Shown here in pieces: positions 938-54,267 of a stretch of DNA of 64,000 nucleotides. Origin of the DNA: Patescibacteria group bacterium (GTDB lineage: Bacteria > Patescibacteriota > Minisyncoccia > Moranbacterales > UBA2206). The DNA lies in the NCBI GenBank assembly GCA_022711335.1, contig JAKLFF010000002.1:17441-81440 (forward strand), read 5' to 3'. The first letter of the stretch is position 1. Every line of letters starts with the position of its first letter. A program made the position numbers and the translations under genes. The notes beneath the pieces are model-generated. The model had not been told where the DNA came from, did no database searches, and worked only from the letters and a program-made list of their open reading frames with translations.

Positions 938-954
938 AGCAATTCACAATTTAC

Positions 955-1060
955 AATGATCAATTTACAATAAATTTACAATAACCAAGCAAATGTAAAT
1001 TGAAAATTGATGCTTGAAAATTTATTGAAAATTGTAAATTGGTAATTGATAATTAATTTT
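955..1060. repeat. AT-rich aatttacaat / ttgaaaatt / ttgataatt repeat block (intergenic trxA-uppS)
   Basis: Direct and inverted short repeats. The same word family occurs at 1..55 and forms the body of the 23S IVS copies at 33306..33497 and 34685..34876. Confidence 0.7.
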
Positions 1061-1061
1061 A

Positions 1062-1900: not shown

Positions 1901-2312
1901 TCTTTTTTTGTAATTTCGATGATTTAAAAACCTCCGGCCGATACGCCTTCAGCCTTTTTATTTTAACATCTCCCATGCCAAACGCCAAAAGTTTTTCTTC
2001 GAGCTTATCCACAAAGGCCGCCTGGTCATATCCGAGGCAGATGGCATCAGGCTTCACCTTTTTTATAACTTCGTATTTGTCTCTCAAGTTTCCCAAAATA
2101 ATTCTATCTGCCAATTCGGATTTTTTAATCCCCTTCAGTCTATCTTCTTCTTTGTTTCTTGGCAACCGCCCTTTCACATTCCAAACGGTTTTATCCCGGG
2201 CGACAACCACAATCAAATATTCTCCATGCTTTCTGGCCTGGCGCAAAAAACTTTCATGCCCTTTATGGAAAATATCAAATGTCCCGAAAACCAAAACCCT
2301 CTTATATTCCAT
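1887..2312 (-). CDS. cytidylyltransferase-like nucleotidyltransferase (TagD / FAD-synthase-like)
   Basis: VLVFGTFDIFHKGHESFL nucleotidyltransferase motif (HxGH); 141 aa. Confidence 0.65.
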   Translation of the reverse strand: MEYKRVLVFGTFDIFHKGHESFLRQARKHGEYLIVVVARDKTVWNVKGRLPRNKEEDRLKGIKKSELADRIILGNLRDKYEVIKKVKPDAICLGYDQAAFVDKLEEKLLAFGMGDVKIKRLKAYRPEVFKSSKLQKKNLEL

Positions 2313-2324
2313 GTTATTTCGGTA

Positions 2325-2460
2325 TCCCTCTCTCCCTCTGGGAGAGATGTCCCCGCCTTGGCGGAGACAGAGAGGGCTTTTTGTAAAATGACGCTGAACC
2401 TAACAAAGCTCCCTCTCCTGTCATGAATACATGACATCCTCTCCCGAAGGGAGAGGAGGG
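2325..2460. repeat. two adjacent degenerate GC-rich palindromic elements (CCCTCTCCC...GGGAGAGGG family)
   Basis: ccctctctccctctgggagag...cggagacagagaggg at 2325..2386 and ctccctctcctgtcatg...catgacatcctctcccgaagggagaggaggg at 2410..2460. Confidence 0.7.
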
Positions 2461-2472
2461 AATTTTAATGGT

Positions 2473-3546
2473 TCATACATTCCTCTCTGCCATATACCTT
2501 GCTATCCCTTCAAAAAAAGTCTTCGCTTCTTCGTTCTTTAAATTAATTTTTGACAAAGCCTCGAGCGACTGGGAAACGAATTTTTCCGCCAGTTTTTGCG
2601 AATATTCCAATGATCCGGTTTCCTCCACTATTTTTCGAAATTCCCACAGTTCGCTTTTTTTCAAGTCCCTTTTTCCCAGATATTTTTTGACGGCATTTTT
2701 TTGTTCGCGGCTTCCCCGCTCGAGGGCTTTTATGGCAAGAAGGGTCTGCTTGCCTTCGATCACATCCGACCCCACCGGCTTGCCCAGCTTTTTTTCATCG
2801 CCGAAAACGCCCAAGATATCGTCCCTGATCTGGAAAGCCTTTCCGAGCGGCATGGCATATCGGCTAAAATTCCTAAAAATATTCTCATCGCACACTCCCG
2901 CCAAAACTGCGCCCAGATGGAGCGGCCCCTCGAAAGAATAGCTCGAAGTTTTTCCCTCGTGCATTTTGAGAATTTCTTTCTCTGTCGCATGTCCTCGAAA
3001 TTCCAAAACGACATCCAGCATCTCTCCCGGAACAATCGTATAAACAATCTCCTGAAGCTTGACAAGCGCCTGAATTATTATTTCCGGCGGAAAATCACTG
3101 GTAAAAATAAGCTGGTTGGCCATAGCCGCCGCCATGTCGCCGGAAAGCATTGCCATAGAATTTCCGAAATGATCCGCTTCTTTTCCTTTGGCCAGCTTTT
3201 TTCCAATTTTTTTATATTTTTCGTGAATCGTCGCTATTCCGTGCCTTTTTTCATCCTTATCGATAATATCGTCATGGATAAGGAGAAAGGAATGCGTCAA
3301 TTCCATGCTTGCAGAAGCCCTGACAATTTCATCGCTATCTTTTCCCCCCATTGCGAGATAGCCGTAGTAGATGAACGCCGGACGGATTCTTTTTCCGCTC
3401 GCCGTCGTAAAATCAGCAATCATTTTGACCGCTTCTTTGGCAAGAGGTCCGGACGCGCCGGCTTCTTTTATTTTCTTCCGGAAATATTCTTTCAAAAACG
3501 CATCCAGCCGCTTTTTGTAATTTTTGAGAAGTTCCGTCGCTTCCAT
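2473..3546 (-). CDS. polyprenyl (geranylgeranyl/farnesyl) diphosphate synthase
   Basis: Both aspartate-rich motifs are present (LIHDDIIDKD and FQIRDDILG). The start is trimmed to MEATELL, because the longer ORF would run into the tRNA-Glu. Confidence 0.85.
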   Translation of the reverse strand: MEATELLKNYKKRLDAFLKEYFRKKIKEAGASGPLAKEAVKMIADFTTASGKRIRPAFIYYGYLAMGGKDSDEIVRASASMELTHSFLLIHDDIIDKDEKRHGIATIHEKYKKIGKKLAKGKEADHFGNSMAMLSGDMAAAMANQLIFTSDFPPEIIIQALVKLQEIVYTIVPGEMLDVVLEFRGHATEKEILKMHEGKTSSYSFEGPLHLGAVLAGVCDENIFRNFSRYAMPLGKAFQIRDDILGVFGDEKKLGKPVGSDVIEGKQTLLAIKALERGSREQKNAVKKYLGKRDLKKSELWEFRKIVEETGSLEYSQKLAEKFVSQSLEALSKINLKNEEAKTFFEGIARYMAERNV

Positions 3547-3566
3547 AATTTCACTTTTACTTTTAG

Positions 3567-3638
3567 TACCGAGTACGGGAATCGGACCCGTGTTGCGAGA
3601 ATGAGAATCTCGTGTCCTAGCCACTAGACGAACTCGGC
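3567..3638 (-). tRNA. tRNA-Glu (anticodon CTC)
   Basis: Cloverleaf folded by hand: acceptor GCCGAGT/ACTCGGT, D-arm TTCGTCTAGTGGCTAGGACAC (a tRNA-Glu signature), anticodon loop TTCTCAT, T-arm ACGGGTCCGATTCCCGT. CCA is not encoded. Confidence 0.75.
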
Positions 3639-3753
3639 ACACCTTAATCTATGTCTCAATTTAACAGTTTTTTTCTGTTTTATCAAGGATTGTCCCAAAC
3701 AGGCAAAACGTCTTTTACATCTGCCGGTTTACTGCTATAATTAAATCATAAGA

Positions 3754-6186
3754 GTGCGAAAACAGGCCATGTCCAAAAAGAAAAATGATAAAAAAATTCC
3801 GATCCTTGAGCCAAAGTTCAAGGATGTTTTGGCGTGTCGAGATGCCAAAATGAAGCCTTTTATTGAAATATTTATTTCAGAGCCGGAAAATGTCTACCAG
3901 GAAAATCTGGGTACAATTGCCGGAATTTTTGAAATTACTGATTTTTCCGAAGATTCTTCCTATATAGTCAATTATCTGGTTTCTATAATAAAAAAGGAAT
4001 ATTTTTCCCGGCCCAAAAGAGGAGCGGTAGAAAGTTTCGAAGCCGCGCTTCACAAGGCCAACTTGGCTCTTTCCAGGCTGGCTTCGCACGGAAGCGTAAG
4101 CTGGATAGGAAATATAAACGCCATCTGCGCTGTTTTTGAAAAAAATAATCTGCATGTTTCCCAAACCGGTTCTGCCTGCATGCTTCTTCTCCGGTCAGGA
4201 ATGCTCACTAATATAAGCGGGAGCGGAAAAGATGCGCAAGATACCAATCCGCTCAAAACTTTCCAGGATCTCATTTCTGGAAGAGTGGAAAAGGATGATA
4301 AGCTGATTGCGGCTACTTCTGAAATTTTCGAAATATTTTCCATGGAAGAAATAAAAAAAAGCGCTCTTAAATTTTCCAAGAAAAATTTTGCCCAGTTTCT
4401 AAACACCGCGCTTGTCAATGAGCTGGAAAGAGCCGCCGCGCTTGTCATTGATATTTCCGAAAAAGAAGAACTCGAAGTTCAGACTCCGCCGAAAATATCA
4501 TCTGTTAATGCTTTCAGCCAAGCCGCTTTTCAAAAATCCGCTCCCCCTGCGGCAGTCAAAAAAACACAGGAAGAAAAAAAAGAAATAATTGAAGAAATCA
4601 AGGAGGAATTCCAAAAAACAAAAGATGGGTTCGTCGACCAGAAAACCGGGCATATCTACATAAAAGACGGCGATATCTCCCTTGAGAGCCAAACGGAAAA
4701 AACGGAATATTTTTCGTTTCCCCGGGAAAAAATAGCCCGCGGAACATCCGGGTTTTTTGCGTCCTTGAAAAAAGCCGCAAAAACAGGACTGTCCAAAATG
4801 AAATTTGGAAAGCGCCCCGAAGCCCTTGAAGAAAAAATTGCCGCATCTCTTGCCGCTGAAGAAAAGCCATATCCCGATCAGTCAAAAATCATAATCAAAG
4901 AGGAAAAAATCCCGCCCAGCCGGAAATTTATGTCCGCGCTCGAAAAAGCGCTTGCGCTTCTAAGATCCGTTTTTCTTTCAATAAAAATTTTTCTGGCCTC
5001 AAAAATACTTTTTCCTTCCTTTTGTTTTCTCCGCAATCTTTGGGGGAAAATCATCCAAAAATATAAATCAAGAAAAGAAGCTTCGCGCGTTTCCGTTTCC
5101 GTTTCCGCTGAAATGCCCGAAGAAAATAAATTTGAAAAATTTCCGGATGAAAAAAATAAGCTTCAGGAATTTTGGAGCCAGCCGGCGCAAAAAAAATCCG
5201 CTTTCAGGGATAATTTAGCCGCTTTTCCGGGCCGCTTGATGCCCAGTTTTTCCAGGACAAAAAATATCCTTCAAAGCCTTTCCTTCCGCCAGAAAATTTA
5301 CGCGCTTGCTTTCGCAGCGGCGATTTTGATAATTCCATATTTCATAGCCAAATATGGAAAAGAAGAACCGAAAGAAATCACAGTTCCCCAAGAAGAGCAG
5401 CTCTCCGCCATTCCTCTTGAGCAGGATATCAATGTGAAAAGAATAGGAAATCTGGCCGGCATTTATCAAGGAGAAAATATCCTGTCTCCGGTTAGCATTA
5501 ACGGAAAAAATTTCGCAGCCGGAAAAGACAAAATAATTTCGCTTTCAGATAGCAAGGAATATCCCTTGCCTTCGGAATTTCAAAACGCAGATTTGATTTC
5601 ACAGATGGATGATCTGAATTTTATTTTTATCATTAAGGACAAAAAAATTGCCGCTTTCAGCGCCACAGCCGGAAAATTTCAGAATAACAATATCTCCATT
5701 CCCGATGGATCTGACATTATTTCAGCCCGATCGTATCTGACTTATCTTTATCTTCTCGACGTAAAAAACAGCCAGATTTACCGCTATCCCCGCGCCGAAG
5801 GCGGGTTCGGCGAAAAAACCGACTGGCTGAAAGATACGGTTGATTTCACAAGCGCCAAAGACATGGCTATAAACGACAATGTTTATGTCACTGACGGAAA
5901 AAGCGTTTATAAATTTTTCCGAGGCAAAAAGCAGGATTATGCTCCTGAAGAAACCGCCACGCCTGTTATCTTCGACAAGCTCTACACTAAGCCGGATTGG
6001 GAAAATCTTTATGTTTTAGACAAAGTTAATTCAAGAATTTTGAAGCTTGACAAAGACGGAAAAATAATCGCGCAGTATTATAACAGCGAGATTGGCAATG
6101 CCAACGATTTCGCAGTGGATGAAGAAAATAATGTGGTTTATGTTTCAAGTGAAAATAGTGTAAAAAGTTTCAACATTGAAATATAG
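3754..6186 (+). CDS. hypothetical membrane protein, 810 aa, one predicted transmembrane segment, family unknown
   Basis: Long ORF with a single hydrophobic segment (IYALAFAAAILIIPYFIAKY). The C-terminal third contains repeated YV.DGKS-like beta-strand-like motifs. Confidence 0.5.
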   Translation: MRKQAMSKKKNDKKIPILEPKFKDVLACRDAKMKPFIEIFISEPENVYQENLGTIAGIFEITDFSEDSSYIVNYLVSIIKKEYFSRPKRGAVESFEAALHKANLALSRLASHGSVSWIGNINAICAVFEKNNLHVSQTGSACMLLLRSGMLTNISGSGKDAQDTNPLKTFQDLISGRVEKDDKLIAATSEIFEIFSMEEIKKSALKFSKKNFAQFLNTALVNELERAAALVIDISEKEELEVQTPPKISSVNAFSQAAFQKSAPPAAVKKTQEEKKEIIEEIKEEFQKTKDGFVDQKTGHIYIKDGDISLESQTEKTEYFSFPREKIARGTSGFFASLKKAAKTGLSKMKFGKRPEALEEKIAASLAAEEKPYPDQSKIIIKEEKIPPSRKFMSALEKALALLRSVFLSIKIFLASKILFPSFCFLRNLWGKIIQKYKSRKEASRVSVSVSAEMPEENKFEKFPDEKNKLQEFWSQPAQKKSAFRDNLAAFPGRLMPSFSRTKNILQSLSFRQKIYALAFAAAILIIPYFIAKYGKEEPKEITVPQEEQLSAIPLEQDINVKRIGNLAGIYQGENILSPVSINGKNFAAGKDKIISLSDSKEYPLPSEFQNADLISQMDDLNFIFIIKDKKIAAFSATAGKFQNNNISIPDGSDIISARSYLTYLYLLDVKNSQIYRYPRAEGGFGEKTDWLKDTVDFTSAKDMAINDNVYVTDGKSVYKFFRGKKQDYAPEETATPVIFDKLYTKPDWENLYVLDKVNSRILKLDKDGKIIAQYYNSEIGNANDFAVDEENNVVYVSSENSVKSFNIEI

Positions 6187-6215
6187 GAAAGTTTAAGTAG
6201 AAAACGACAAAAAAA

Positions 6216-6240
6216 CCTTGCAACTGCAAGGGCTTTTTTA
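6216..6240 (+). terminator. rho-independent terminator after 3754..6186
   Basis: Hairpin CCTTGCA-ACT-GCAAGGG followed by TTTTTT. Confidence 0.6.
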
Positions 6241-6255
6241 TTTTATAAATCATTT

Positions 6256-6300
6256 CCCCTTCCCCCTTAGGGGGAAGGTGGCCGTAGGCCGGATGAGGGA
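6256..6300. repeat. GC-rich palindromic element (intergenic copy)
   Basis: ccccttcccccttagggggaaggtggccgtaggccggatgaggga, which matches the family consensus CCCCTCTCCCTTTGGGAGAGGGTGCCCGAAGGGCGGATGAGGGA. Confidence 0.8.
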
Positions 6301-6315
6301 AAAAGCTTAAATAAA

Positions 6316-6699
6316 TTATTCTATCTTTAAAAATACTCCGACTAAATTATTGTTTATTTCATTATTCCAAAATCTAATTACTTTAAATCCCTGTCTTTCC
6401 AGATATTTAGTTCTTTCTTCATCATATCTTTCCCAATTTTCTTCTTTATGCTGCCAACCATCCAGTTCGATAATTAACTTTTTTTCCAAACATATGAAAT
6501 CAACAATATAATTTCCTATCAAATATTGCCTTCTAAATTTTAAATCTCTAAATCCTTTGGATCTAATCCTTGACCAAAGGATTATTTCCTGAGGTGTAGA
6601 ATCTTTTCTTAGTTTTCTGTTTCTTTGCAAGGTTTGTGCTGCTAATCTTGTTTTTATCTTTATCATTACTTCCTTCCCTCTCCTGTCCCTTTGGGACAT
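6316..6699 (-). CDS. DUF559 (Vsr-like) endonuclease domain protein
   Basis: DFICLEKKLIIELDGWQH...VIRFWNNEI matches the DUF559/very-short-patch-repair endonuclease fold. The N-terminal extension to 6747 is coded by a GC-rich repeat and is probably spurious. Confidence 0.75.
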   Translation of the reverse strand: MSQRDRRGKEVMIKIKTRLAAQTLQRNRKLRKDSTPQEIILWSRIRSKGFRDLKFRRQYLIGNYIVDFICLEKKLIIELDGWQHKEENWERYDEERTKYLERQGFKVIRFWNNEINNNLVGVFLKIE

Positions 6700-6723
6700 C
6701 CTCTCCCTAAGGGAGAGGGGGGA
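6675..6723. repeat. GC-rich palindromic element (between the ATPase stop and the DUF559 start)
   Basis: tccctctcctgtccctttgggacatcctctccctaagggagaggggggaat, the same subtype as the copy at 2410..2460. Confidence 0.75.
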
Positions 6724-6739
6724 ATATTTTTTTACTTTT

Positions 6740-9259
6740 TTACGCAATACTATTCACTTTCATCTTCGTTCTCTCCATAATCTCCCGACTCACAACGCTT
6801 TTGTCCCGGCCGTATTTCAAGCGGGAAAGCTCTTTGAAGGCATTGGCCGCTTCCTGATTGCCTTTTGTCGGAGGATAAAAAGAAATGTTAAAAGGTTTCG
6901 AAAGGAGATCATTTATAAGTATCTTTGCAAAACCTCTATAATTGTCAACGTTTATAAGATCCTGCTTGGAAAAAACCGGCGCGAACTGCTTTTCCATAAA
7001 TTCGGCGTCTTCCGCTCCCACACGCATCACTACCATCGATCCGACATTGCCAAACACCGCCTTGGAAATTTCTTCCTTGAGCTGGGCGATGAACTGATGG
7101 GCAATGATGAGGCATAATTTGTATTTCCTGGCTTCGGAAAGAATCTGCGCGATGGAATTGGTCGTCACATTCTGGAATTCATCCATATACAGATAAAAAT
7201 CCACTCTCTGATCCTCCGGCGTATCCACCCGGCTCATGGCGTTCATGAGAATCTTTCCAACCACCACCATCCCGAGAAGCCGCGCGTTGATTTCTCCTAT
7301 TTTTCCTTTAGAAAGATTAACCAGCAGAATTTTTTTATTGTCCATGATATCGCGGAAATTGATGGTGCTTTTCTGTTGGGCGATTATCGGCCGCATCATA
7401 TCATTGGAAATAAAAGTAGTAAGCTTGGAAGTGATATAGGGAACCATATTCGCCAAAGCCGCTTCTCCTCCGGCCTTTTCCGCTTCCTTGGTCCAAAAAT
7501 CAACCACAGTCGGATTTTTGCACCGGGAAATTTTCATCGCCCGAAAACTTTCATCTGACAGGACTTTGGGAATTTCCATGAGCGTATTTCCCGAATCCGG
7601 ATCTTCCATGATAAGCAACATGGCGTTTCGCATATATTGCTCAAACATCGGTCCGCCGGTTGATTTCAAATCGTATAATTGGTCGAAAATTCCGATAAGC
7701 TCGTTTATCACAAAAGTTTTTTGTTCCGGACGCGCCGGATCATATTCCATCATGTTAAGCCCGAAGGGTCTTTCAATATCTGCAGGATCAAAGATAATGA
7801 CATCTTCCGCCCGCTCTTTGGGAATTGCCGTCAGAATATCTTCGATAGCATCTCCGTGCGGATCGATAAAACAAAAACCGTTGCCGTTTTTCGCGTCCTG
7901 CTTGGCCATCTCCTGCAAAAAATTAGACTTTCCGGTTCCGGTCTGTCCAATGGTATAAAGGTGCCTCCGGCGATCTTTTTCCGCAATTTTTATGACTGTT
8001 TTGGCACCCCTATATTCATTGAAACCTAAAATTATGCCTTCTTGCGGGATATCGAGAGGCGGCGAAGCGGCGTTGGATTTCAGCCATTTGATTTTCGGCG
8101 TTTCGGTCGTGGAAATAGGCAGATGGAAGACGGAGGCAATTTCCTCGTTGTTGAGAATAATGGATTCATCGTCGCGGAAATTGCGGAAAATAAAGTCATA
8201 AGCGATGTCTTTCTTTTTCACTCTTTTTTTCACCTGGAAGCAATTAATGTCGCCGTTTTCAAACTGCGAAAAGGAATTCTCCAACTGGCCCAGAATTTCT
8301 TTGGCCCTTTCTCCGCTGCCAGCGGAAGCAATCAGGCGAATGTTGACATGGAAGCCGGTTTTGGAAGATTTATTTTCAATGCTTTTCACCAATTCCTGCT
8401 CCTCGGGAGTAAGCTGTACCGGCTTGGGTTCATTGTTTAGCTGGTTGTTTTTCGGAGATGACATAGCGGAATATAGCGCGTCCCCCATCCCTTTTCCGGC
8501 TTTCGAAATAATTGACCTGTCTGCATCTTTCAGTCTCTTTCCCTGCTGCATTTCGTGGGCGATTTTTTTGCCCTTCACTCTCCAGTGCGTCCCGGCCGGA
8601 CGCATAACCAGCTGGATAGCCGCGCCTTCTTTTTTAGTTTCCAGCTTGCTAAGCGCATTGGTTATAGCATTTAGCGGGTCAACTTCCAGATTTTCATAAG
8701 TCTTCACCGGAAGCGTATATTTATTTTTGATCTTAAGCACTGAAGCCTCAGTAAAACTCCCCGGCGAAAAAATAGTATAATCTTCCGATCTTTCCAGAAC
8801 CGCGTTAGGGAAAAAACTGTGCACCTGCTTCTCAATCGATTCCCGGAATTTTTTGGGAATGGCCATGAAAAAAACGATTTCTTCTGAATTTGAAGAGTTG
8901 GCAATTTCAAAACTGATCGCCGGCCTTCCCCAAAGTATTTGTTTGAGCATGCTTTTTGTATCTTTCAATGAAGAAAGCGCAGTGAACAGCTGTTCCATCG
9001 CTCCGATTTCTTCTTTCCAAATTTCATTCATTTTCTTTCCCTGCGTCTGCTGCTCCGGTTTTTCCGTCTTAGAAACCCGGATGATTTCCAAATCCATGTT
9101 CATCGACTGGTTTATCTCGCTGCGAAAACCAAAAAAACTTCCGGCGACCATAAAAGCGCCGGCAATCAAAGCGAAAGTTCCGGAAACCAAAGAGAGGATT
9201 ATTAGGATTGAGTTGAGATCAGGGTTTGGCATAAAAAATTTCCAATATCTAATATCCAA
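6740..9259 (-). CDS. membrane-anchored TraG/TraD/VirD4-like (type IV coupling protein family) ATPase
   Basis: N-terminal transmembrane helix; Walker A motif GQTGTGKS followed by DPHGD; Walker B YLYMDEF; C-terminal AHQFIAQL (the Q-x-x-QL motif of TrwB/TraD-family ATPases); 839 aa. Confidence 0.55.
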   Translation of the reverse strand: MDIRYWKFFMPNPDLNSILIILSLVSGTFALIAGAFMVAGSFFGFRSEINQSMNMDLEIIRVSKTEKPEQQTQGKKMNEIWKEEIGAMEQLFTALSSLKDTKSMLKQILWGRPAISFEIANSSNSEEIVFFMAIPKKFRESIEKQVHSFFPNAVLERSEDYTIFSPGSFTEASVLKIKNKYTLPVKTYENLEVDPLNAITNALSKLETKKEGAAIQLVMRPAGTHWRVKGKKIAHEMQQGKRLKDADRSIISKAGKGMGDALYSAMSSPKNNQLNNEPKPVQLTPEEQELVKSIENKSSKTGFHVNIRLIASAGSGERAKEILGQLENSFSQFENGDINCFQVKKRVKKKDIAYDFIFRNFRDDESIILNNEEIASVFHLPISTTETPKIKWLKSNAASPPLDIPQEGIILGFNEYRGAKTVIKIAEKDRRRHLYTIGQTGTGKSNFLQEMAKQDAKNGNGFCFIDPHGDAIEDILTAIPKERAEDVIIFDPADIERPFGLNMMEYDPARPEQKTFVINELIGIFDQLYDLKSTGGPMFEQYMRNAMLLIMEDPDSGNTLMEIPKVLSDESFRAMKISRCKNPTVVDFWTKEAEKAGGEAALANMVPYITSKLTTFISNDMMRPIIAQQKSTINFRDIMDNKKILLVNLSKGKIGEINARLLGMVVVGKILMNAMSRVDTPEDQRVDFYLYMDEFQNVTTNSIAQILSEARKYKLCLIIAHQFIAQLKEEISKAVFGNVGSMVVMRVGAEDAEFMEKQFAPVFSKQDLINVDNYRGFAKILINDLLSKPFNISFYPPTKGNQEAANAFKELSRLKYGRDKSVVSREIMERTKMKVNSIA

Positions 9260-9411
9260 TTTCCAATAAAAACCCCAATTCCCAAATTATTCTTGTATCT
9301 TTGGACATTTTTAATTGGACATTTTATTGGAAATTGGTAATTGGTAATTTGAGGACTTTCTTTTTTAAATAAAACTACACAAAAAAAATTGAATGCAACT
9401 TTAATAAAGCG

Positions 9412-21801: not shown

Positions 21802-21915
21802 AATTTTTAAATTTTGTAATTTTTAATTTTATAAATAATATTTTAATGCTTTAATTTTTAAACATTAAAAATTTATATTTATTTAAAAATTCAAAAATTC
21901 AAAAATTATAAAATT

Positions 21916-29706: not shown

Positions 29707-29829
29707 AATTCTCGGCACTGACTTACTCTTCCTCTGAAAAAAACAGAGATACCATCAGCGCTGACAGGCTTAACGACTGAGTTCGGGATGGGATCAGGTG
29801 TGACCCTGTCGCTAGAAGCACCGAGAATT
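29707..29829 (-). rRNA. rrf: 5S ribosomal RNA
   Basis: Minus-strand sequence GGTGCTTCTAGCGACAGGGTCACACCTGATCCCATCCCGAACTCAGTCGTTAAGCC...GCTGATGGTA... matches the bacterial 5S core. Helix I closes between 29811..29829 and 29707..29724. Confidence 0.7.
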
Positions 29830-30394
29830 ATAGAAACAAAATGGCAGAAATGAAGGGATGCTTGTCCACCTCTGGCGGAGGATCGGGCCCGCCAAAGACG
29901 GGTAAATGTTTCCACTTCGCTAGAACCGCCAAAATAATGCTTTTTACCCTATTGAATAAAATTTTGCCTCCGGTAAAATTTAATTTTTCCTTCGGAAAAA
30001 TTATTCAACAGGTTAAATTAAAATGCGTTTATCACAGGCGAAAAGAACATAAACGATACAACCGTAAACATAATTACGAAAAATATCGTAAAAATAAATC
30101 GAAAACTTTTTTTATATTTGTCGTATCTTTTCATATCTTTTTACATTATACCATTAATTGCAACCAACTACAACTTTCTTAGAAACTGCTAACTGCTAAC
30201 CTCCGACGCTCCGGCCAAAGCCGGAGGTCGGAGCTCCGAACCACTAATGAGTTCAAAAACTCATTAGTGCGTCGGAGCATATTTTTAAGAGAGATAATGT
30301 TTAGTTTATTAGTATCTCTTGGCTCAATGAATCTCTCCACTTACACCTGAGACCTATCAACCTGGTAATCTTCCAGGAAACCAGCCAATGCAAA

Positions 30395-30592
30395 GCATTG
30401 GAAGCACGAAATCCAAAATTAGAAATCCGAAACAAATTCAAATTTTAAAATCACAATTTTCAAAACATTAATAGGAATTAGTTTTGTCAGCCAGAGGCTG
30501 ATCCGCCTTTGGCGGAAATTTTGAAAATTATAATTTTGATATTGTTTAGAATTTCGAAATTCGAATTTCGAATTTCCAGTGCTTCGCACTGG
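30395..30592. repeat. IVS family B, copy 2 (helix-98 region near the 23S 3' end)
   Basis: Begins gcattggaagcacgaaatccaaaattagaaatccgaaacaaattcaaat and ends ...gaatttcgaatttccagtgcttcgcactg. Related to 33900..34070. Confidence 0.7.
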
Positions 30593-30794
30593 CGTTGCCT
30601 TATCTTGGGCGGGGCTTCCCGCTTATATGCTTTCAGCGGTTATCCCTTCCGAACGTAGCTACCCAGCAGTGCTCCTGGCGGAACAGCTGGTACACCAGAG
30701 GTTCGTTCTTCAAGGTCCTCTCGTACTATCGAAGACTTCCCTCAAGCAACAACGCCTACAGCAGATAGGAGACCAACCTGTCTCACGCATGTTT

Positions 30795-31180
30795 TTCACT
30801 TATTACTAAGTGCATTGGACTATAACTTCATCCAAAAAAATATGGATGGCTAACATTTAGTCTCTACGGGCAATTACAAACTTCAAAGAAGGGAGGAGAG
30901 AGTCTCCATTGGGAGGGCAGAAAAACCCTAAGCCATTCGGCTTTCAAAATGGACGATGCCAGGAGCCATTCGGCTAATTCCTGGAGTTCATCTTTCGCTC
31001 TCCTCTTTAAAGTTCATAATTTTCCCTCGGTATTGTCCTTTCTCAGGATTCTACCGAAATTAGTTAGCTTCACTATTAATATTACTATTAATAGCCGCCG
31101 TGTTTTTGATGTCTTATTCCTCGGATTCAAACTGTTAAATTTCCTTTATCTAAAAGCTAAAAAGCTAATAACTAAAAGCT
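30795..31180 (-). mobile_element. ORF-less group I intron-like insertion at the 23S position equivalent to E. coli ~2593
   Basis: Interrupts the conserved GGGTTCA|GAACGTCGTGAGACAG. Contains the P7-like motif GTAGAGACTAAATG (reverse complement at 30845..30858). Confidence 0.5.
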
Positions 31181-31231
31181 GTTTAACGGTTTGAACCCAG
31201 CTCGCGTACCGCTTTAATTGGCGAACAGCCA

Positions 31232-31291
<60 letters not shown>

Positions 31292-31317
31292 CTCCGTCGA
31301 TGTGGACTCTTGGGAGG

Positions 31318-31350
<33 letters not shown>

Positions 31351-31511
31351 TGATGATCTTCCACGCTCCTATGAGCGATGGTCGGTTCACTAACTTCCAC
31401 TTTCGTGACTGATCGACTAATGAGTCTTGCAGTAAAGCAGGCTTATGCGTTTGCACTACCGGCCCGATTTCCATCCGGACCTAGCCTACCTTTGTAAACG
31501 CCTCCGTTGCC

Positions 31512-31544
<33 letters not shown>

Positions 31545-31945
31545 ACCAGGCACTGTCCCCGAACTGGATAAGAAGAAAGAAGTATGAAGTAAGAATCAAG
31601 AAGAATATGCAAAAATTTTTCTTTAGAAAAATTTTTGGCTTATCTCTTTCTTCTTTATTCTTTCTTCTTAACAGTTCAGGGTTAGCGTTTAAACTCACAA
31701 AGAGTGGTATTACACTGTTGGCTCCATCTCGACCGAAATCGAGACTTCAAAGCCTCCCACCTATTCTAGGCATCATAAACTCAAACGCAATGCCAAGCTA
31801 TAGTAAAGCTCCACGGGGTCTTTTCGTCTTGCTGCAGGTCGACGGCATCTTTACCGTCATTGCAATTTCACCGAGTTCTTCGTTAAGACAGTTACCAAGT
31901 CGTTACGCCTTTAATGCGGGTCAGAATTTACCTGACAAGGAATTT

Positions 31946-32555
31946 CGCTCTTTTTTGTTAACTCTTGATCGCTCAAGAGAACGGACTATATTTTTTCGCC
32001 TTATTAGCGAATTCGGCATTTAGTCTCTGAGGATTCTAAAAATCTAGAAGATTTTCTATGATTCATTTTCTCAATCATTTTTGCAATTTTTTTCATTCCA
32101 CTTAATTTCGAATGTTCATTCTCATTCATCATTGCCACTATTTTTGCAAAAATTTTAAAATCTTCTTTTTTGGCCGTTTTCAATCGGTTTTTATCAAAGA
32201 ACGGGATTATTATTTCAGTCAAATCTTTTTTAGATCTTACGCAATAACGATATAAATTCTCGTTGTGATTATCATATCGTTTATTCACGAAAACTTTTCC
32301 ACATTTGAAAAATTTTAATAAAATTTCAAGTGATTTTTTACTTTTTTCGCCTTGCGTTACTACAAATTCCGGAAAAACTTGCCATCCAAATTTTGTAGTT
32401 TTGTTTCTAAAAAGACTAACCGAGAAACATCCTTCTCCATCAACATAACCAATTATCCAACCAATCATTTTTAGTCTTTCCTGCTGATTGTCTGGTTTTT
32501 CAAATTTACCTTGAAAAACACTGGAAACATTTTTACTGGGCATAACTTTTTATTA
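31946..32555 (-). mobile_element. group I intron in 23S (near E. coli position 1931) encoding a LAGLIDADG endonuclease
   Basis: Interrupts ...TAAGGTA|GCGAAATTCCTTGTC. Carries the Tetrahymena-like P7 motif CAGAGACTAAATG (reverse complement at 32021..32037). Confidence 0.6.
32004..32543 (-). CDS. LAGLIDADG homing endonuclease (intron-encoded)
   Basis: GYVDGEGCF matches the LAGLIDADG motif. The 179-aa ORF lies wholly inside the 23S locus. Confidence 0.75.
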   Translation of the reverse strand: MPSKNVSSVFQGKFEKPDNQQERLKMIGWIIGYVDGEGCFSVSLFRNKTTKFGWQVFPEFVVTQGEKSKKSLEILLKFFKCGKVFVNKRYDNHNENLYRYCVRSKKDLTEIIIPFFDKNRLKTAKKEDFKIFAKIVAMMNENEHSKLSGMKKIAKMIEKMNHRKSSRFLESSETKCRIR

Positions 32556-33005
32556 AATAATCTATGGAATAATTATACCATAGTAGCTCCAGATTCACCA
32601 GATTTTCCAGCATATAGCTGAATGTTTTAAGACATACTATTTTAATAGTATAGGCAGTTACTTTTCCTTTTTCTTAATTTGCCGTTTACCAATCTTCACA
32701 CCATGCAATCGTTCCAGTCTTGAGACTACCTTGCAAGATAATCTCAACCTTAGAACGATTCATAATGTATGTGTTAGCTCTATGTCTCCATAGAGATCGG
32801 ACTATATCATCTTCGATCTTTATATCGAAGTTTGGCGTGTAGTCTCTGAGGATTCTGCCAAAATAGTTGGCAGCCTTTCCTGCTGATTGTCTAATCCGAT
32901 AATTTTTTAAAACCACTCAGCTTATCCTTGCGGATTACTGTTTGGGTATTATCGGCTCTAAAGAGTTTCCAGCATTTGGCCAAATTTTTTAACTACAATC
33001 GTTAC
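32556..33005 (-). mobile_element. second, degenerate group I intron (near E. coli position 1917) with a remnant ORF at 32686..32916
   Basis: Follows the exon sequence ...GCGATAACTATAA. Shares the 17-mer tagtctctgaggattct (P7 region) with the neighbouring intron. Only a 76-aa ORF without LAGLIDADG motifs remains. Confidence 0.4.
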
Positions 33006-33305
33006 TTTATAGTTATCGCTGACGTTCACTGGCGCTTCGGGGATTGGCTTGCACCGCTCCCGTTAACGTTCCAGCACTGGTCAGGCGTCACCCCCCATAC
33101 TTCCCCTTGCGGGTTTGCGGAGAGCTGTGTTTTTGATAAACAGTCGCTTGGTATCTTTCGCTGCGGCCCCCGCCGAGGCGGGGGCAGTCCATATCCCTAA
33201 GTTACGGACGCTGTTTTGCCGAGTTCCTTAACGAAGGTTCACTCGTTCACCTTAGGCTACTCGCCCAGTCTACCTGTGTCGGTTTTAGTACGGATTCTGT
33301 CAGAT

Positions 33306-33497
33306 CCTGTGTCTCGCGCTGCTCGCCACAGGGAATTTACAATTTTCAATTTACAATTTACAATCAATTTTCAATTTAATAATTTTTAATTTTCAAACCA
33401 ACTTGTAATTGATAATTGAAAATTGAATCATTGAAAATTTATTGATCATTGATAATTGATCATTGAAAATTCCGTGTCGAACAAAGTGAGACACGGG
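33306..33497. repeat. IVS family A, copy 1 (192 bp, inserted near 23S nt ~1600)
   Basis: Identical over 192 bp to 34685..34876. Closed by the helix CCGTGTCTC / GAGACACGG around an AT-rich body. Confidence 0.9.
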
Positions 33498-33899
33498 CAT
33501 AGAGGGTTTTCCCGGCACCTTGCTCATCTCCCTTTTCTGTCCGAAGACAAATTCGAGAAATATCTTGAATGATATGCGGCGGATTTTCCTGCCACACGTT
33601 CTCAATATTCCTACGAAAATCCAATAATTCGCAGAGACTACTAAGATGCGTCACCTCATTTATAAACTGACAAAAGCTATGGAATATTAACCATATGTCC
33701 ATCGACTACGCCTTTCGGCCTCGCCTTAGGCCCGGCTAACCCTGGGATGATCACCATTGCCCAGGAAACCTTAGACTTTCGGTGTCGGGGGATCTCACCC
33801 CAATTGCGGTTACTCGTTCCAGCATTCTTACTTCCATACACTCCAGCCTGGCTCGCGCCTTGACCTTCAGTGCGTATGGAACACTTCCCTACCAGACAA

Positions 33900-34070
33900 T
33901 GCTACGCATTGGAAGCACGAAATCCAAAATTAGAAATCCGAAACAAATTCAAATACTTAAATTCAAATGTCCAAAACAAGTTGTTTTAAATTTTGAAATT
34001 ATAATTTTTTAATATTGTTTCGAATTTCGATATTCGAATTTCGAATTTCCAGTGCGAAGCACTGAATCCG
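33900..34070. repeat. IVS family B, copy 1 (helix 45 of 23S)
   Basis: Replaces the helix-45 loop between GTGCCGAAGATGCGG and GTCTGGTAGGG. Ends in the hairpin cagtgcGAAGcactg. Confidence 0.7.
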
Positions 34071-34684
34071 CATCTTCGGCACTATGTTTCAGCCCCGTTA
34101 CATTTTAGGCGCAAAGCCTCTAGACTAGTGAGCTGTTACGCACTCTTTAAAGGATGGCTGCTTCTAAGCCAACCTCCTAGGTGTATAAGAAGCCTTACTT
34201 CCTTTTCCACTTAACATAGATTTTGGGACCTTAGATGGCGGTCTGGGCTTTTTCCCTTTTGAGATCCGACCTTAGCGCCGGATTTCTGACTGTCCGAATA
34301 AGTAGCTTTGGAATTCGGAGTTTGGTTGAAAACCCTACGGCGAACCGCGAATTCTCATTCAGTAGCTCTACCTCCAAAGCACATTTAACGAACGCTAGCC
34401 CTCAAGCTATTTCGGGAAGAACCAGCTATCGCCAAGCTCGATTACAATTTCTGCTCTATTCACAAGTCATCCCCCAGTGTTGTACGGCTGGTGGGTTCGG
34501 GCCTCCTTTGGGTTTTACCCCAAATTCACCCTGCTCATAAATAGCTCGCCTGGCTTCGGGTCTAGTCCATGCCATATAATCGCCCGTTAAGGCTCGCTTT
34601 CACTTTGGCTCCACAATAAAAATTGCTTAGCCTACGACATAGAACTAACTCGCTGGATCGTTCTACAAAAAGCACGCCATCACC

Positions 34685-34876
34685 CCTGTGTCTCGCGCTG
34701 CTCGCCACAGGGAATTTACAATTTTCAATTTACAATTTACAATCAATTTTCAATTTAATAATTTTTAATTTTCAAACCAACTTGTAATTGATAATTGAAA
34801 ATTGAATCATTGAAAATTTATTGATCATTGATAATTGATCATTGAAAATTCCGTGTCGAACAAAGTGAGACACGGG
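34685..34876. repeat. IVS family A, copy 2 (helix 25 of 23S)
   Basis: Identical to 33306..33497. The flanks align to E. coli CTGAAACCGTGTACGTACAAGCAGTGGGAGC, which is helix 25. Confidence 0.9.
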
Positions 34877-35267
34877 AGCTCTGACTCTTTGTTAGCATAC
34901 GGTTTCAGATACTATTTCATCCCCCTCATCGGGGTGCTTTTCACCTTTCCCTCACGGTACTGGTTCGCTATCGATCACTAAAAATATTTAGCCTTGGAAG
35001 ATAGTGCTCCCATCTTCAAACGGGATTTCTCCGGTCCCGCCCTACTTGTTTTGAGACTTAGTTCCACGGATCCATTTTCGCTTACGGGGCTTTCACCCTC
35101 TATAGCCGTTCTTTCCAGAAACGTTTGGCTAATAGAACCGCTAAAGACTCAAGGCTTTTCCGCGTTCGCTCGCCACTACTTGCGGAATCTCAGTTGATTT
35201 CTTTTCCTCCGGCTAATAAGATGTTTCAATTCGCCGGGTGTGCTTCATCACACTATGAATTCATGTG

Positions 35268-35452
35268 AAGATAATCCATTCTTCACTTTATCCAGAATCT
35301 TGCTAATTAAAATAGCCCGCAAATTTTTAATTTTTTAATTTTTAAATAATGCTCAAATTTCTAATGTTTAAAAATTAAAGCATTAAAAAAATTATTTACA
35401 AAATTAAAAATTATAAAATTTAAAAATTCTATTCTGAACGAAGTGAAGAATG
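35268..35452. repeat. IVS in helix 9 of 23S
   Basis: About 150-bp AT-rich insert bounded by the inverted repeat ATCCATTCTTCACTT / AAGTGAAGAATGGAT, between TTTCCGAATGGG and GAACTGAAACATCT equivalents. Confidence 0.75.
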
Positions 35453-36067
35453 GATTGGGTTTTCCCATTCGGAAATCTCCGGGTCAAAGGTTGCTCGTCA
35501 CCTCGCCGAAGCTTATCGCAGACTGCTACGCCCTTCATCGCTTTTTAGTGTCAAGGCATCCACCATATGCATTAGTATTACCGCTCTTACATCACGAAGC
35601 ATATAACATACAACATACAACAATTACGCATAGCACTAAATATTGTTTCGTTTTTTATGTTACATGTTTTATGCTATATGCTTCATGATTTTTAGTTAGC
35701 AGTTAGCAATCACTAATGTCGCCAACTGCGTTTTTCGCGCGGCCGCCGGTAAAGCGGTTTTACGCGATTGCAATTTCTATCCCGCCGCTCGCAAGCGGCA
35801 GAATGACCTACTTTCTAATGCTTCGTTGCAAAAAGCATTAGAAGACTAATCGCCGATATCAATTTTAGTTTCCGCAAACTCTAATTAACTTGAGTATCGC
35901 GATTAAGACCGTATTCAATTGTCAAGGTTCGCCCTAGCCGCGCGGCCGCCGTTGAGGCGGTTTTACGCGGTAACGCGGAAATACATTGATACTACTTTCT
36001 ATCAAGTAATATTAAACTATTTCTTCGCTACCCATTCGTTATTCATATAAATTCACAGTTCGCAACA

Positions 36068-36093
36068 AACAAAAAACCGCTTTTTCAAGCGGG
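36068..36093 (-). terminator. rho-independent terminator (minus strand) between the membrane-protein gene and the rRNA promoter region
   Basis: On the minus strand, the hairpin CCGCTT-GAAA-AAGCGG is followed by TTTTTTG. Confidence 0.55.
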
Positions 36094-36286
36094 ATCATTT
36101 TAGACAATTTCAAATCTAAAGTTTCACCCGCTTTTTTGCAATTTATTTATGATTGATCTTGCCATCTATAATTCAAATTAATCGCCTAACAATAATAGCA
36201 ATTCCTGAAATTATGTCAAGCGGCCGCTGAACAACCAAAGCTTGGACTCGGTCAACCGAGGCCAAGCTTTGAAATTTGCCGAAATT

Positions 36287-36979
36287 TTATTTTTTCTTCT
36301 CCGTTATTTCCTGCCTCAGTTTTTCGAGTATCATTCTCGCTTCATCTTTCCCTCCAAGGCCGAAAGCTAATCCTCCAGCAAGCGACAGCATTGCAACAAT
36401 TCCTATAAATATGGTGCTTACTAAAGAAGATGCTATGCCAAGCTGGATAAGCGCCGCAAAAACTCCGAAAATAATGATGGCCCATTTGGAAATGACCGCC
36501 AGGAGAGTCGCCGACATGACACCCGCCGCCTTTGTGCTTCCTTTCACCACGCCATAAACAAAATTACCGATCAAAACAACAACCGAAAGAATAACCACAG
36601 CTACGACAACATTGGGAATATAGAGAATTATCTTATTGAGGAATTCTGTTACTTGCGTCAGATTGAGAATATCGGTTGCCGCCATAAGAAATACAAGCAC
36701 CAGAAACCACTTGATAAGCCCGCCGAAAAACTCCGAGATTCCAATTTTAATCCCGGCGCAGTTCGACTTGCAATTAAAGCCGATTTTTTCCGCCGCCTTG
36801 TCAACGCGGGCGGTTTTCATCATTTTTTCTCCAAGTCTTCCCATTGTAACAGCGATAATCCATCCGGCTAAAAAAACCAGAAGCGCTCCTAAAAAAGACG
36901 GGAGAAAATTAACCAGCCTTTCACCGAGGGTTATGAGCGATACAGTTATTGCTTCTCCCCAGGTTTCAACGCCATTCAT
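36287..36979 (-). CDS. small membrane protein with tandem conserved-TM-helix repeats (MscS-N-terminal-like)
   Basis: 230 aa with four to five transmembrane helices and a repeated FL.F...LL.F.G....A.G..(V/I) pattern. Confidence 0.4.
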   Translation of the reverse strand: MNGVETWGEAITVSLITLGERLVNFLPSFLGALLVFLAGWIIAVTMGRLGEKMMKTARVDKAAEKIGFNCKSNCAGIKIGISEFFGGLIKWFLVLVFLMAATDILNLTQVTEFLNKIILYIPNVVVAVVILSVVVLIGNFVYGVVKGSTKAAGVMSATLLAVISKWAIIIFGVFAALIQLGIASSLVSTIFIGIVAMLSLAGGLAFGLGGKDEARMILEKLRQEITEKKK

Positions 36980-45683: not shown

Positions 45684-45689
45684 TTTTTT

Positions 45690-45800
45690 AGAATTTAGAA
45701 TTATGAATTTAGTATTTTGAATGAGAATATTGAATGCTGAATAACTATTCTAAATTCTTTATTCTTGATTCCCATTCTAAATTCCAAATACTAAATTCAA
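45690..45800. repeat. about 115-bp AT-rich palindromic element, copy 2 of 2 (partner 1780..1900)
   Basis: ttagaatttagaattatgaatttagtattttgaatgagaat...ttcccattctaaattccaaatactaaattc. Lies immediately 5' of gatC. Confidence 0.6.
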
Positions 45801-45804
45801 AATT

Positions 45805-52557: not shown

Positions 52558-52626
52558 AATTTCACCTCCCTTCGCAAGAAGAAAGAATTAAGAAGAAAGA
52601 AGAAAGCATTTTTTCATCTTTTATTC

Positions 52627-53022
52627 CTAGTTTCTTACTTCATTATTGTTTATTTTGTTTCTATTTCCTTTAATCAAACCATTTATCAATTTGTGAGACA
52701 ACACCGTTTTATCAGCTATTTTTTTGAATTCATCCGCATTGATATATTTTAAATCTCTCGAGATTATCAGCTGGCTTTGCAATTCCGCAACCGATCCGAG
52801 AGCCATTTGCAAAAATTGGTTCTTATCCTTGAAAGTTGCCCGACTGAATCCTTCCGCGATATTAGAAACGATCGAAACCGAACATCTCCTCATTTGATTG
52901 GATAACCCAAACATTTCATTTTTGGGGAATCTTTCGGTAACTTTATAAACTTCAAGAACTAATTTGTGCGATTCTTTCCATGCCACCAAATCCGTAAATT
53001 TTTCAATCTTCCTATTTTGCAT
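52627..53022 (-). CDS. four-helix-bundle protein of the '23S rRNA intervening-sequence protein' family (TIGR02436-like)
   Basis: 131 aa. AWKESHKLVLEVYKVTERFPK...EMFGLSNQMRRCSVSIVSNIAEGFSR...AELQSQL matches this family's conserved layout. Confidence 0.6.
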   Translation of the reverse strand: MQNRKIEKFTDLVAWKESHKLVLEVYKVTERFPKNEMFGLSNQMRRCSVSIVSNIAEGFSRATFKDKNQFLQMALGSVAELQSQLIISRDLKYINADEFKKIADKTVLSHKLINGLIKGNRNKINNNEVRN

Positions 53023-53055
53023 TCTTCTTTCTTCCTTCTTCTTACTTCTTTATTC

Positions 53056-54267
53056 TTACTTGATTTGTCCTGCAATGTTGTATATCGGCATAAGAATCGC
53101 AAAAGCCATAAACCCGACGGCTATCCCTATTATAACCATCAGCACCGGTTCGATCAATGTGGACAAATTTTTGGTCATCATTTCCGTTTCCTGATCATAG
53201 AAACTGGCAATATGCACCAGAACTTTGTCAATCTGCCCCGAATCTTCCCCGATTTTCACCATATGGGAAACCACCGGCGGAATAAGCGGGCTTTTGGAAA
53301 GCACATTGCTCATATTTCCCCCGACTTTCACTTCCTCCGCCGCCCGGAGAAAAATCGCTTCATAAACAACGTTATTGATGACCGAGCTGGTGATCGTAAG
53401 CGCCCGGATAATCGGTATCCCGCCGACCAGAAGCACAGAGAGGTTCTGAGCGAAGCGGGTAATGTAGACATTTCTGAAAATCACCCCGACGATCGGAAGC
53501 TTTATTTTTATCTGGTCCCACTCTTTGGCGCCCTGTTCGGTTCTAAGATAATAAAGAATTCCCCCGATGAATCCAAAAATAACAATCGCCACCGCCCACC
53601 AATAAACCGACATAAAATCTCCGATGGCCATTACGATTTTAGTGTACCAAGGCACCTCGGCGCTCATTTCTTTTATTATCTGGGTCAATTTGGGAAGAAT
53701 GAAAGCAATCGTGATGAACCCGATTATAAAAAACACAACCAGAATTATGCATGGATACATCAAAGCCGAGCGCACCCGGTTGGCCAGATTGTAGTTCCTT
53801 TCAATATTCTCCGCGATATAGTCGATCGATTTTTTGAGATTTCCGGATGTTTCTCCGGCCTTTATAATGTTTATGCTAAGCATGGAAAAAACATCGCGAT
53901 GCTTTGCCAATGAGTCCGAAAAAGGAAGCCCGTTCTCAACATCGGCTATTATTTCCTTGAGAATTTTCATAAAATATTTGTTCTGGGTCTGTTCGGAAAT
54001 GGCCGTAAGGGAAGCCACAATGGGAACCCGGGCCTCGATAAGAATGGCCAGCTGGCGGAAAAAAATCACCTGTTCCTTATCCGTTACCCGGTCATAATAT
54101 TTGAGAATAGTTTTGGCGATAGAATCATCGGCCGATTCTTTTATTATGCTTGTTGGATAAAGATCATTTTTTTGGAGAATTGAAATAGCCGCTTCGCTTG
54201 AAATTGCGTCAATTACTCCCTCTTTGATTTCTCCCGTTTTTGTTTTTGCTTTGAATAAAAATTTCAT
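53056..54267 (-). CDS. pilC: type IV pilus inner-membrane platform protein (GspF/PilC family)
   Basis: Two T2SSF repeats and three transmembrane helices; 403 aa. Confidence 0.85.
   Translation of the reverse strand: MKFLFKAKTKTGEIKEGVIDAISSEAAISILQKNDLYPTSIIKESADDSIAKTILKYYDRVTDKEQVIFFRQLAILIEARVPIVASLTAISEQTQNKYFMKILKEIIADVENGLPFSDSLAKHRDVFSMLSINIIKAGETSGNLKKSIDYIAENIERNYNLANRVRSALMYPCIILVVFFIIGFITIAFILPKLTQIIKEMSAEVPWYTKIVMAIGDFMSVYWWAVAIVIFGFIGGILYYLRTEQGAKEWDQIKIKLPIVGVIFRNVYITRFAQNLSVLLVGGIPIIRALTITSSVINNVVYEAIFLRAAEEVKVGGNMSNVLSKSPLIPPVVSHMVKIGEDSGQIDKVLVHIASFYDQETEMMTKNLSTLIEPVLMVIIGIAVGFMAFAILMPIYNIAGQIK

Follow-up and report, generated by a model that had tools for sequence, protein, structure and literature searches.

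Knowledge of intervening sequences (IVSs) in bacterial rRNA genes dates back to about 1990, and their mobility is a suspicion of long standing; in classical cases, the same IVS lies at the same helix in different operons or species. We know of no case in which the route of their spread has been shown. Here, we report a 192-nucleotide (nt) unit, IVS-A, that is present twice within one 23S rRNA gene in a 64-kb window (the whole stretch of DNA analyzed, 64,000 nt of contig JAKLFF010000002.1 from an uncultured, ultra-small Patescibacteria group bacterium), and we ask how the same unit came to occupy two positions of one gene. IVS-A is probably an IVS without an open reading frame (ORF), from a family that resides in the rRNA genes of Candidatus Moranbacteria, and it was most likely copied recently. 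The locus gives a donor/recipient pair in one single-copy gene at zero divergence, together with empty-site comparators.

One unit at two positions of a 23S rRNA gene

Positions 33306 to 33497 and 34685 to 34876, which start 1379 nt apart, are identical at 192/192 nt (100%), and the base-for-base identity claimed in a first-pass annotation of this DNA holds over the full length. A 37-nt probe from the end of the unit had exactly two matches in the window (0 in 100 shuffles). The adjoining bases differ on both sides (left, T versus C; right, C versus A), so the unit is sharply bounded. Inserts were mapped with blastn against Escherichia coli rrlH, local Infernal alignment, and alignments with relatives, and the E. 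coli numbering was checked. The placement given at first pass (helix 25 and near nt 1600) was about right, except that the second position is an internal loop and not a hairpin tip; the loop is 3 nt long and separates helix 55 from helix 54 on the 3′ strand (hereafter the 54/55 site). The orientation needed correction, as the 23S rRNA gene lies on the minus strand; both copies are sense relative to its rRNA.

The identical locus was found in many metagenome assemblies, including NCBI metagenome-assembled genome (MAG) GCA_035453105.1. Contig DAOTCM010000025.1 of an NCBI MAG (L009; fetched loci are given L numbers here) has the same layout with two identical copies, both traversed, and Joint Genome Institute (JGI) contigs L002 and L006 run through the helix-25 copy, including its two junctions. 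Four k141 contigs built by MEGAHIT from different samples stop exactly 141 nt into the helix-25 copy, and the first base of one SPAdes contig and of five Logan contigs falls 110, 87, or 30 nt inside the 54/55 copy. The outer junctions are present in >10 contigs (different samples, three assemblers), and in the window, L009, L002, and L006 alike, the repeat directly adjoins both ends of the middle rRNA segment. With all four junctions in independent assemblies, the two-copy arrangement is not an assembly artifact.

A truly single repeat that an assembler duplicated or misjoined would fit a length exceeding that of typical short reads, the k141 contigs that break inside the unit, the N gaps that follow both copies in relative L057, and the single copy in contig L099 (JGI Ga0209202_1001825, positions 4263 to 8181), but we regard it as extremely improbable. 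L099 joins rRNA positions 1 to 901 to positions 2089 to 5298 via its single copy, which removes 1187 nt of 23S domains II and III; because this part of a single-copy essential gene is lost, the collapse lies in L099, and the two-copy assembly is the right one. Only the order A-R-B-R-C, moreover, accommodates every one of the three essential rRNA segments. As to the assembly artifact raised at first pass as a possible refutation, independent assemblies supported the four junctions, and L099 showed the opposite error. As a public contig, L099 shows that IVS repeats corrupt CPR (candidate phyla radiation) rRNA assemblies, and such repeats account for the poor assembly of CPR 23S genes (breaks, N gaps, and collapses).

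Anatomy and movement between helices

IVS-A has GC-rich end modules around an AT-rich body (Table 1) of heptamer-like words (AAUUUUC, AAUGAUC, and AUUGUAA). It folds as a single rod of ~85 bp, in which a basal duplex of ~20 bp is followed by an AT-rich stem of ~60 bp (dG, -76.4 kcal/mol; z, -8.9 with helix-25 flanks and -7.1 with 54/55 flanks). A closing helix, which had been proposed as a check, is present: the ends are complementary, the extended stem-loop is closed, and the minimum-free-energy structure is one rod. Complementarity of the ends extends over ~27 nt, only ~17/25 of it at the DNA level, with the remainder being G:U pairs or mismatches. Each end can also form its own hairpin, the rod being favored by 13 to 15 kcal/mol; the other inserts of the gene fold as rods as well (z, -6.3 to -10.5). 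No Rfam family matched IVS-A at the gathering threshold, and a permissive scan returned only subthreshold plant microRNA long-hairpin models. A group I or II intron identity was rejected, as IVS-A had no Rfam intron match, though both true group I introns of the gene were detected. There is no credible ORF in IVS-A; the sole overlapping call (33460 to 33702) runs into the conserved 23S core.

Relatives were fetched via GyrB synteny, a metagenome pattern search, and LAGLIDADG homologues (1.4 Mb of loci). GyrB of the window is 80 to 82% identical to that of MAGs labeled Candidatus Moranbacteria/Moraniibacteriota (Parcubacteria, CPR). A cyanobacterial or large-sulfur-bacterium source, at which the heptamer repeats had hinted, was rejected on the basis of these GyrB matches. 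The 54/55 site is empty in L025, L027, L029, L034, L043, L057, L102, L104, L106, and L108 and in E. coli, and L100 has only a 13-nt small hairpin there. Helix 25 bears homologous IVSs in L027, L097, L098, and L104 and is thus occupied in both closest relatives, L104 and L027. Comparison of the relatives' rRNA genes, as recommended at first pass, therefore identifies helix 25 as the old site and 54/55 as a gain of the window lineage, with the helix-25 copy as the probable donor. Among close relatives, the presence of inserts is sporadic in alignments.

A-type IVSs could instead be old at both sites and owe their identity to recent gene conversion, to which direct repeats at a distance of 1.4 kb within a gene lend themselves well; a second family in the gene, IVS-B, has a pair of copies 88 to 90% identical, which shows that paralogues can persist. 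We consider this quite unlikely, since 54/55 is empty in every relative examined, including L104 and L106, whose flanking 23S sequences are 87 to 94% identical to those of the window. At least one insertion in the window lineage would still be required under gene conversion.

Spread between helices of one gene has occurred repeatedly in this clade. In L057 (PCRW01000044.1, a Moranbacteria MAG), inserts at helix 25 and at the hairpin of E. coli 131 to 148, which we take to be helix 9, are 130/130 identical save one 7-nt unit (7665 to 7795 and 8366 to 8503, each with a run of N after it). The helix-9 IVS of the window, with a 5′ hairpin of the subtype CAUUCU-UCACUUCGUUC-AGAAU, and the helix-25 IVS of L106, a relative whose helix 9 is empty, share 85% identity over 135 nt; one A-type subtype thus occupies helix 9 in the window, helix 25 in L106, and the two helices together in L057. 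IVS-B ends in tetraloop hairpins (CAGUGC-UUCG-GCACUG and CAAUGC-GUAG-CAUUG) and occupies helices 45 and 98 of the window gene; its two copies have arms 88 to 90% identical and centers that differ, the helix-98 copy having extra GC-rich hairpins in its center. Only the helix-45 copy is common to L034, where its 5′ end is also at helix 45.

The end module is the conserved part of the family. Its 5′ hairpin has a near-invariant loop (UCACUnnGUUC; 3′ partner, GCGAGCnnnGCGAGA) on stems that covary (CGUGUC/GACACG, CAUUCU/AGAAUG, UGUGUC/AACACA, and CGUGUU/AACACG). The 5′ module is conserved at 25/25 positions in L096 and at 23/25 in L027, L097, and L098. In L096, the two ends match those of the window at 25/25 and 20/22 positions, at a different site and within 23S sequence that is 71 to 81% identical. 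Covariation was scored in an alignment (A1) of eight distinct module sequences, from which the structure itself was also derived; 93.5% of cells were paired in the basal duplex (10 pairs changed on both sides) and 90.5% in the local end hairpins (9 pairs changed on both sides). None of 500 shuffles reached the paired fraction or the double-change counts for either the duplex or the hairpins, and slid controls were 29 to 54% paired. Among the relatives examined, the module occurs at five 23S sites and spans several genera: helix 9 (window and L057), E. coli ~270 (L096 and L048), helix 25 (window, L027, L097, L098, L104/105, L106, and L057), helices 54/55 (window only), and helix 98 (L057 and, as a minimal 51-nt hairpin without an AT body, L034). 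The first-pass view that the unit behaves as a mobile one is strengthened by these five sites, by the empty 54/55 site in relatives, and by the subtype that lies at different helices. A metagenome scan with the 5′ module gave only three foreign matches in a collection that lacks the source genome.

The AT-rich bodies, made of heptamer-like units, differ strongly between species with the same end module. At E. coli ~270, the insert of L100 combines ends like those of IVS-B with a body that matches the IVS-A body at 80% identity. The proposal that the body derives from a genomic repeat family was borne out by two intergenic spacers of the window. The IVS-A body is 74% identical over 127 nt to spacer 940 to 1054 (E value, 3e-15; 72 bits; shuffles, ≤31 bits), and the helix-9 IVS body is 90% identical over 108 nt to spacer 21802 to 21907 (E value, 3e-34). 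IVS-A is thus a composite of a conserved GC-rich end module and an exchangeable AT-rich body, and the duplication copied the whole composite. This ties rRNA inserts to the intergenic hairpin spacers of reduced genomes.

Several spacers of the window (938 to 1061, 21802 to 21915, 9241 to 9352, 45691 to 45771, and 1 to 55) consist wholly of AT-rich palindrome from stop codon to next start codon, and the palindrome family is 75 to 90% conserved in spacers of many Moranbacteria MAGs, e.g., upstream of gyrB in L018, L021, and L038. These palindromes could be terminators, promoters, or mobile elements. In the ligA-gatC spacer (window positions 45684 to 45804), L005 and L006, which have identical GatA, carry the palindrome TAATGCTT.AATTTTTAAACATTA, and the window carries a different one; the end of ligA diverges too beside the differing spacer, which suggests recombination or a strain mosaic between L005/L006 and the window.

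Candidate routes of processing and spread

The second copy most likely arose by a recent duplicative insertion at the DNA level, a mechanism that we infer from the observed pattern. At the RNA level, IVS-A would be transcribed within pre-23S rRNA, and its GC-rich ends would pair, with the rod projecting from the tip of helix 25 and from the 54/55 loop. Most likely, RNase III would then cut the rod from the precursor without religation, leaving a fragmented but functional 23S rRNA. The case for RNase III excision is by analogy with classical IVSs and from passages of a CPR survey in which rRNA inserts are reported as absent from transcripts (PMC11270868).

The units could also be expansion segments retained in the mature ribosome. 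In eukaryotes, expansion segments arise in this same part of domain III, and L100 has a small extra hairpin at the same junction. Conservation of the end-module sequence could reflect a bound protein, and eukaryotic and archaeal expansion segments are likewise helical additions at solvent-side variable sites (helices 25, 45, 54/55, 79, and 98). We nonetheless find retention unlikely. Expansion segments are retained and vertically inherited, whereas the window inserts are patchy among relatives, identical between sites, and probably removed; vertical conservation fails at 54/55, which is empty in the relatives examined. RNase III would find an ideal substrate in a perfect double-stranded RNA rod of ~85 bp. 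The AT-rich bodies are hypervariable as well as exchangeable, CPR ribosomes have in other respects undergone size reduction, and passages of the CPR survey report removal of rRNA inserts from transcripts (PMC11270868).

On the reading of IVS-A as a recently copied IVS, a DNA-level event would have placed a copy of the whole unit (module and body) at a new, permissive position elsewhere in the gene, and AT-rich bodies would be exchanged with the dispersed family of intergenic hairpin spacers. As the mover, a nonautonomous hairpin-ended element mobilized in trans fits best, because the boundaries are sharp and conserved, the end hairpins are Watson-Crick perfect, and there is no target-site duplication. 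The main alternative to mobilization in trans is illegitimate recombination; no useful microhomology was found between the donor and recipient flanks.

Mobilization as single-stranded DNA by a Y1 (HUH) transposase that recognizes terminal hairpins would make the unit a REPIN- or IS200/IS605-type nonautonomous element. Both ends are Watson-Crick-perfect hairpins, mutually inverted, with the four-way complementarity typical of repetitive extragenic palindromic (REP) doublets, and there is no terminal duplication. REPINs with their REP-associated tyrosine transposases (RAYTs) and IS200/IS605-derived palindrome elements likewise consist of two inverted terminal hairpins and a spacer that form a rod or two hairpins, have no target duplication and no ORF, and RAYT-like genes exist in the clade. 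Y1_Tnp genes adjoin rRNA genes in relatives L106 and L107, and that of L107 is flanked by its own palindromes. Against this, no Y1 gene was present among the scanned ORFs of the window, and the unit has neither a linked cognate transposase nor a conserved flanking tetranucleotide, no target tetranucleotide being shared beside the insertions. The palindromes of the L107 gene (CCTAAAACCNGGTTTTAGG) show no relation to the IVS module, and the window has none of them. The module was seen only inside 23S genes, and not as the tens to hundreds of intergenic copies of REPIN/RAYT systems; the dependence of its inner basal duplex on G:U pairs points to RNA-level selection. On balance, we consider the Y1 route unlikely. 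Unlike miniature inverted-repeat transposable elements, the unit has no target-site duplication.

The Y1_Tnp genes themselves (L107, 2413 to 3138; L106, 9980 to 12214) lie directly downstream of 23S-5S and score above the Pfam threshold; their best NCBIfam match, below the cutoff, is the REP-associated tyrosine transposase. The L107 gene is flanked by three copies of its palindrome, and the L106 gene adjoins a bAvd and reverse-transcriptase pair that looks like a diversity-generating retroelement. A RAYT link of IVS-A was rejected, as the palindrome beside the RAYT-like genes of relatives is unrelated and does not occur in the window.

Tentatively, A-type IVSs might represent a new class of hairpin-ended, ORF-less mobile element specialized for CPR rRNA helices, in which the end module would be both a mobility signal (acting in trans, possibly with an HUH/Y1 enzyme) and an RNA processing signal and the body would be swapped with intergenic palindromes. 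We regard this proposal as rather unlikely. If true, it would be the first mechanistic model for the origin and helix-to-helix hopping of bacterial rRNA IVSs.

Several results weigh against the view of IVS-A as a recently copied, resident IVS. Neither target-site duplication (flanks GUCAGAGCU and GGUGAUGG at one copy, CCUCUAUG and AUCUGACAG at the other) nor a shared target motif was found at the insertion sites, and the exact 54/55 junction is not reconstructible because the region differs from relatives by ~4 nt besides the insert. The internal loop that holds the second copy is an unusual place for a classical IVS. The scanned ORFs of the 64-kb window include no transposase and no rnc gene. 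The module was not found outside 23S genes in the window and the 1.4 Mb of fetched loci, and module and body core were absent from IMG/VR viral contigs, so a general-purpose mobile element is not demonstrated. A 24-mer of the unit had 0 matches in the GTDB species representatives, a set without the source species. Lastly, the preference for sense-strand folding is moderate in most family members and absent for IVS-A. A strong sense-strand bias was accordingly discarded as proof of RNA-level selection, and carriage of IVS-A by phages was rejected given the absence of module and body core from IMG/VR.

Classical RNase III-processed 23S IVSs (helices 25/45 in Salmonella, Yersinia, Campylobacter, Leptospira, and Coxiella; helix 9 in Rhizobiales) are likewise extra rrl sequence closed by complementary ends (PMC4990558, PMC8708148, and PMC11270868). 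They share with the window inserts the use of helices 9, 25, and 45, sporadic presence among relatives, and, in ORF-less forms, a length of about 100 to 200 nt. The helix-25 copy lies at the helix tip as in classical IVSs, whereas the second copy, at 54/55, is at an internal loop. The window unit also differs in being identical at two positions of one gene, one of them an internal loop, and its family differs in having a conserved end module at five sites in several genera and a body exchangeable with intergenic hairpins.

Short ORF-less inserts at helices 25/45 of CPR 23S genes, which are classical IVS sites, are presumed to be RNase III IVSs in passages of the survey by Tsurumaki et al. in 2024, which catalogued insert positions (sites 23IS2/23IS4) and left the short ORF-less inserts “uncharacterized” (PMC11270868). 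In these passages, no sequence family, end module, intragenic duplication, or intergenic-repeat link is described (PMC11270868). The window IVSs resemble the catalogued inserts in clade, length (<200 bp), lack of an ORF or intron signature, and position at helix 25/45, and almost certainly the two sets are one and the same. Brown et al. in 2015 reportedly also noted short insertion sequences in CPR 23S genes that are not introns and have no ORF. IVSs and CPR rRNA inserts are themselves already known. As far as the literature searched goes, what is new is the occurrence of one IVS, without a single difference, at two positions of a gene, of which one is an internal loop, together with an end module defined by its sequence at five sites in several genera, repeated helix-to-helix hopping, and exchange of bodies with intergenic hairpins. 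The end module offers a target for sequence searches and biochemical tests across CPR rRNA genes.

The host gene and other elements of the window

The 23S rRNA gene is 5298 nt long, against a model of 2925 positions; besides two group I introns, it contains six inserts that are not introns and fall into three families (Table 1). Adjoining genes are housekeeping ones (gyrB, gatA/gatC, ligA, ftsW, mreB, type IV pilus, and type II secretion system).

Table 1. Coordinates of the 23S rRNA gene, its inserts, the parts of IVS-A, and related spacers in the window
Feature	Position(s)	Strand	Basis or remark
23S rRNA gene	30288..35585	-	Rfam LSU_rRNA_bacteria, 2018.6 bits, model positions 1-2925
5S rRNA gene	29710-29825	-	Downstream of 23S
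IVS-A copy, tip of helix 25 (replaces E. coli 540-553)	34685..34876	-	blastn; Rfam insert after model position 583
IVS-A copy, between E. coli 1582/1583	33306..33497	-	Infernal and alignments of relatives
IVS-A RNA 5′ end module, CCCGUGUC-UCACUUUGUUC-GACACGG	34851..34876, again 33472-33497	-	Hairpin with conserved 11-nt loop
IVS-A RNA 3′ end module, CCCUGUG-GCGAGCAGCGCGAGA-CACAGG	34685..34712, again 33306-33333	-	Pairs with 5′ module
IVS-A AT-rich body, 138 nt	34713..34850, again 33334-33471	-	Distal part of rod
Third A-type IVS, hairpin of E. coli 131-148	35264..35455	-	blastn vs rrlH; fold z, -7.8
IVS-B, helix 45 (E. coli 1163-1177)	33903..34067	-	blastn; 5′ end shared with L034
IVS-B paralogue, helix 98 (E. 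coli 2760-2819 region)	about 30374..30620	-	blastn; fold z, -10.5
IVS with purine-rich arms, tip of helix 79 (E. coli ~2203-2212)	31570..31698	-	blastn vs rrlH
Group I intron, between E. coli 1919 and 1932	31950..33006	-	Rfam Intron_gpI, 80.3 bits
LAGLIDADG ORF in 1919/1932 intron	32004-32543	-	Pfam LAGLIDADG_1, E value 3e-22
ORF-less group I intron, E. coli 2593/2594	30788..31185	-	Rfam Intron_gpI, 53.5 bits; blastn break
AT-rich palindrome filling the undecaprenyl-PP synthase/thioredoxin spacer	938..1061		Relative of IVS-A body
AT-rich palindrome filling the mreB/glycosyltransferase spacer	21802..21915		Relative of helix-9 IVS body

The rRNA layout is unlinked, with no 16S rRNA gene detected by Rfam in the 64-kb window and none within 28 kb upstream of 23S. 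The 23S-5S spacer is 461 nt long and contains several GC-rich hairpins (region 29710 to 36290). A leader/trailer stem (GCUAACUGCUAACU / AGUUAGCAGUUAGC) brackets 23S, and the IVS end module has no similarity to this processing stem. Two 31-nt GC-rich direct repeats (35736 to 35766 and 35939 to 35969) lie in the 23S leader.

Within 52573 to 53060, a free-standing gene of the 23S_rRNA_IVP/bAvd family (52627 to 53022, minus strand; Pfam, 126 bits) lies between inverted repeats, rich in purines and with AAGAAGAAAG words, that match both arms of the helix-79 IVS (31570 to 31698). Near-exact matches to a 12-mer in the window fell within the 23S_rRNA_IVP and helix-79 loci in 13/20 cases (3.1 expected). 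The region looks like an IVS-type cassette outside an rRNA gene. A tandem repeat of ~42 nt (gaaaatctctcattgacccctgaaaatctttcatcgatctct), seen by eye, lies at positions 340 to 440 inside ORF 167 to 574. At 6316 to 9259, a DUF559 endonuclease-like gene stands beside a large protein with TrwB/TraG coupling-protein motifs, and this region may be the remnant of a conjugative or mobile element.

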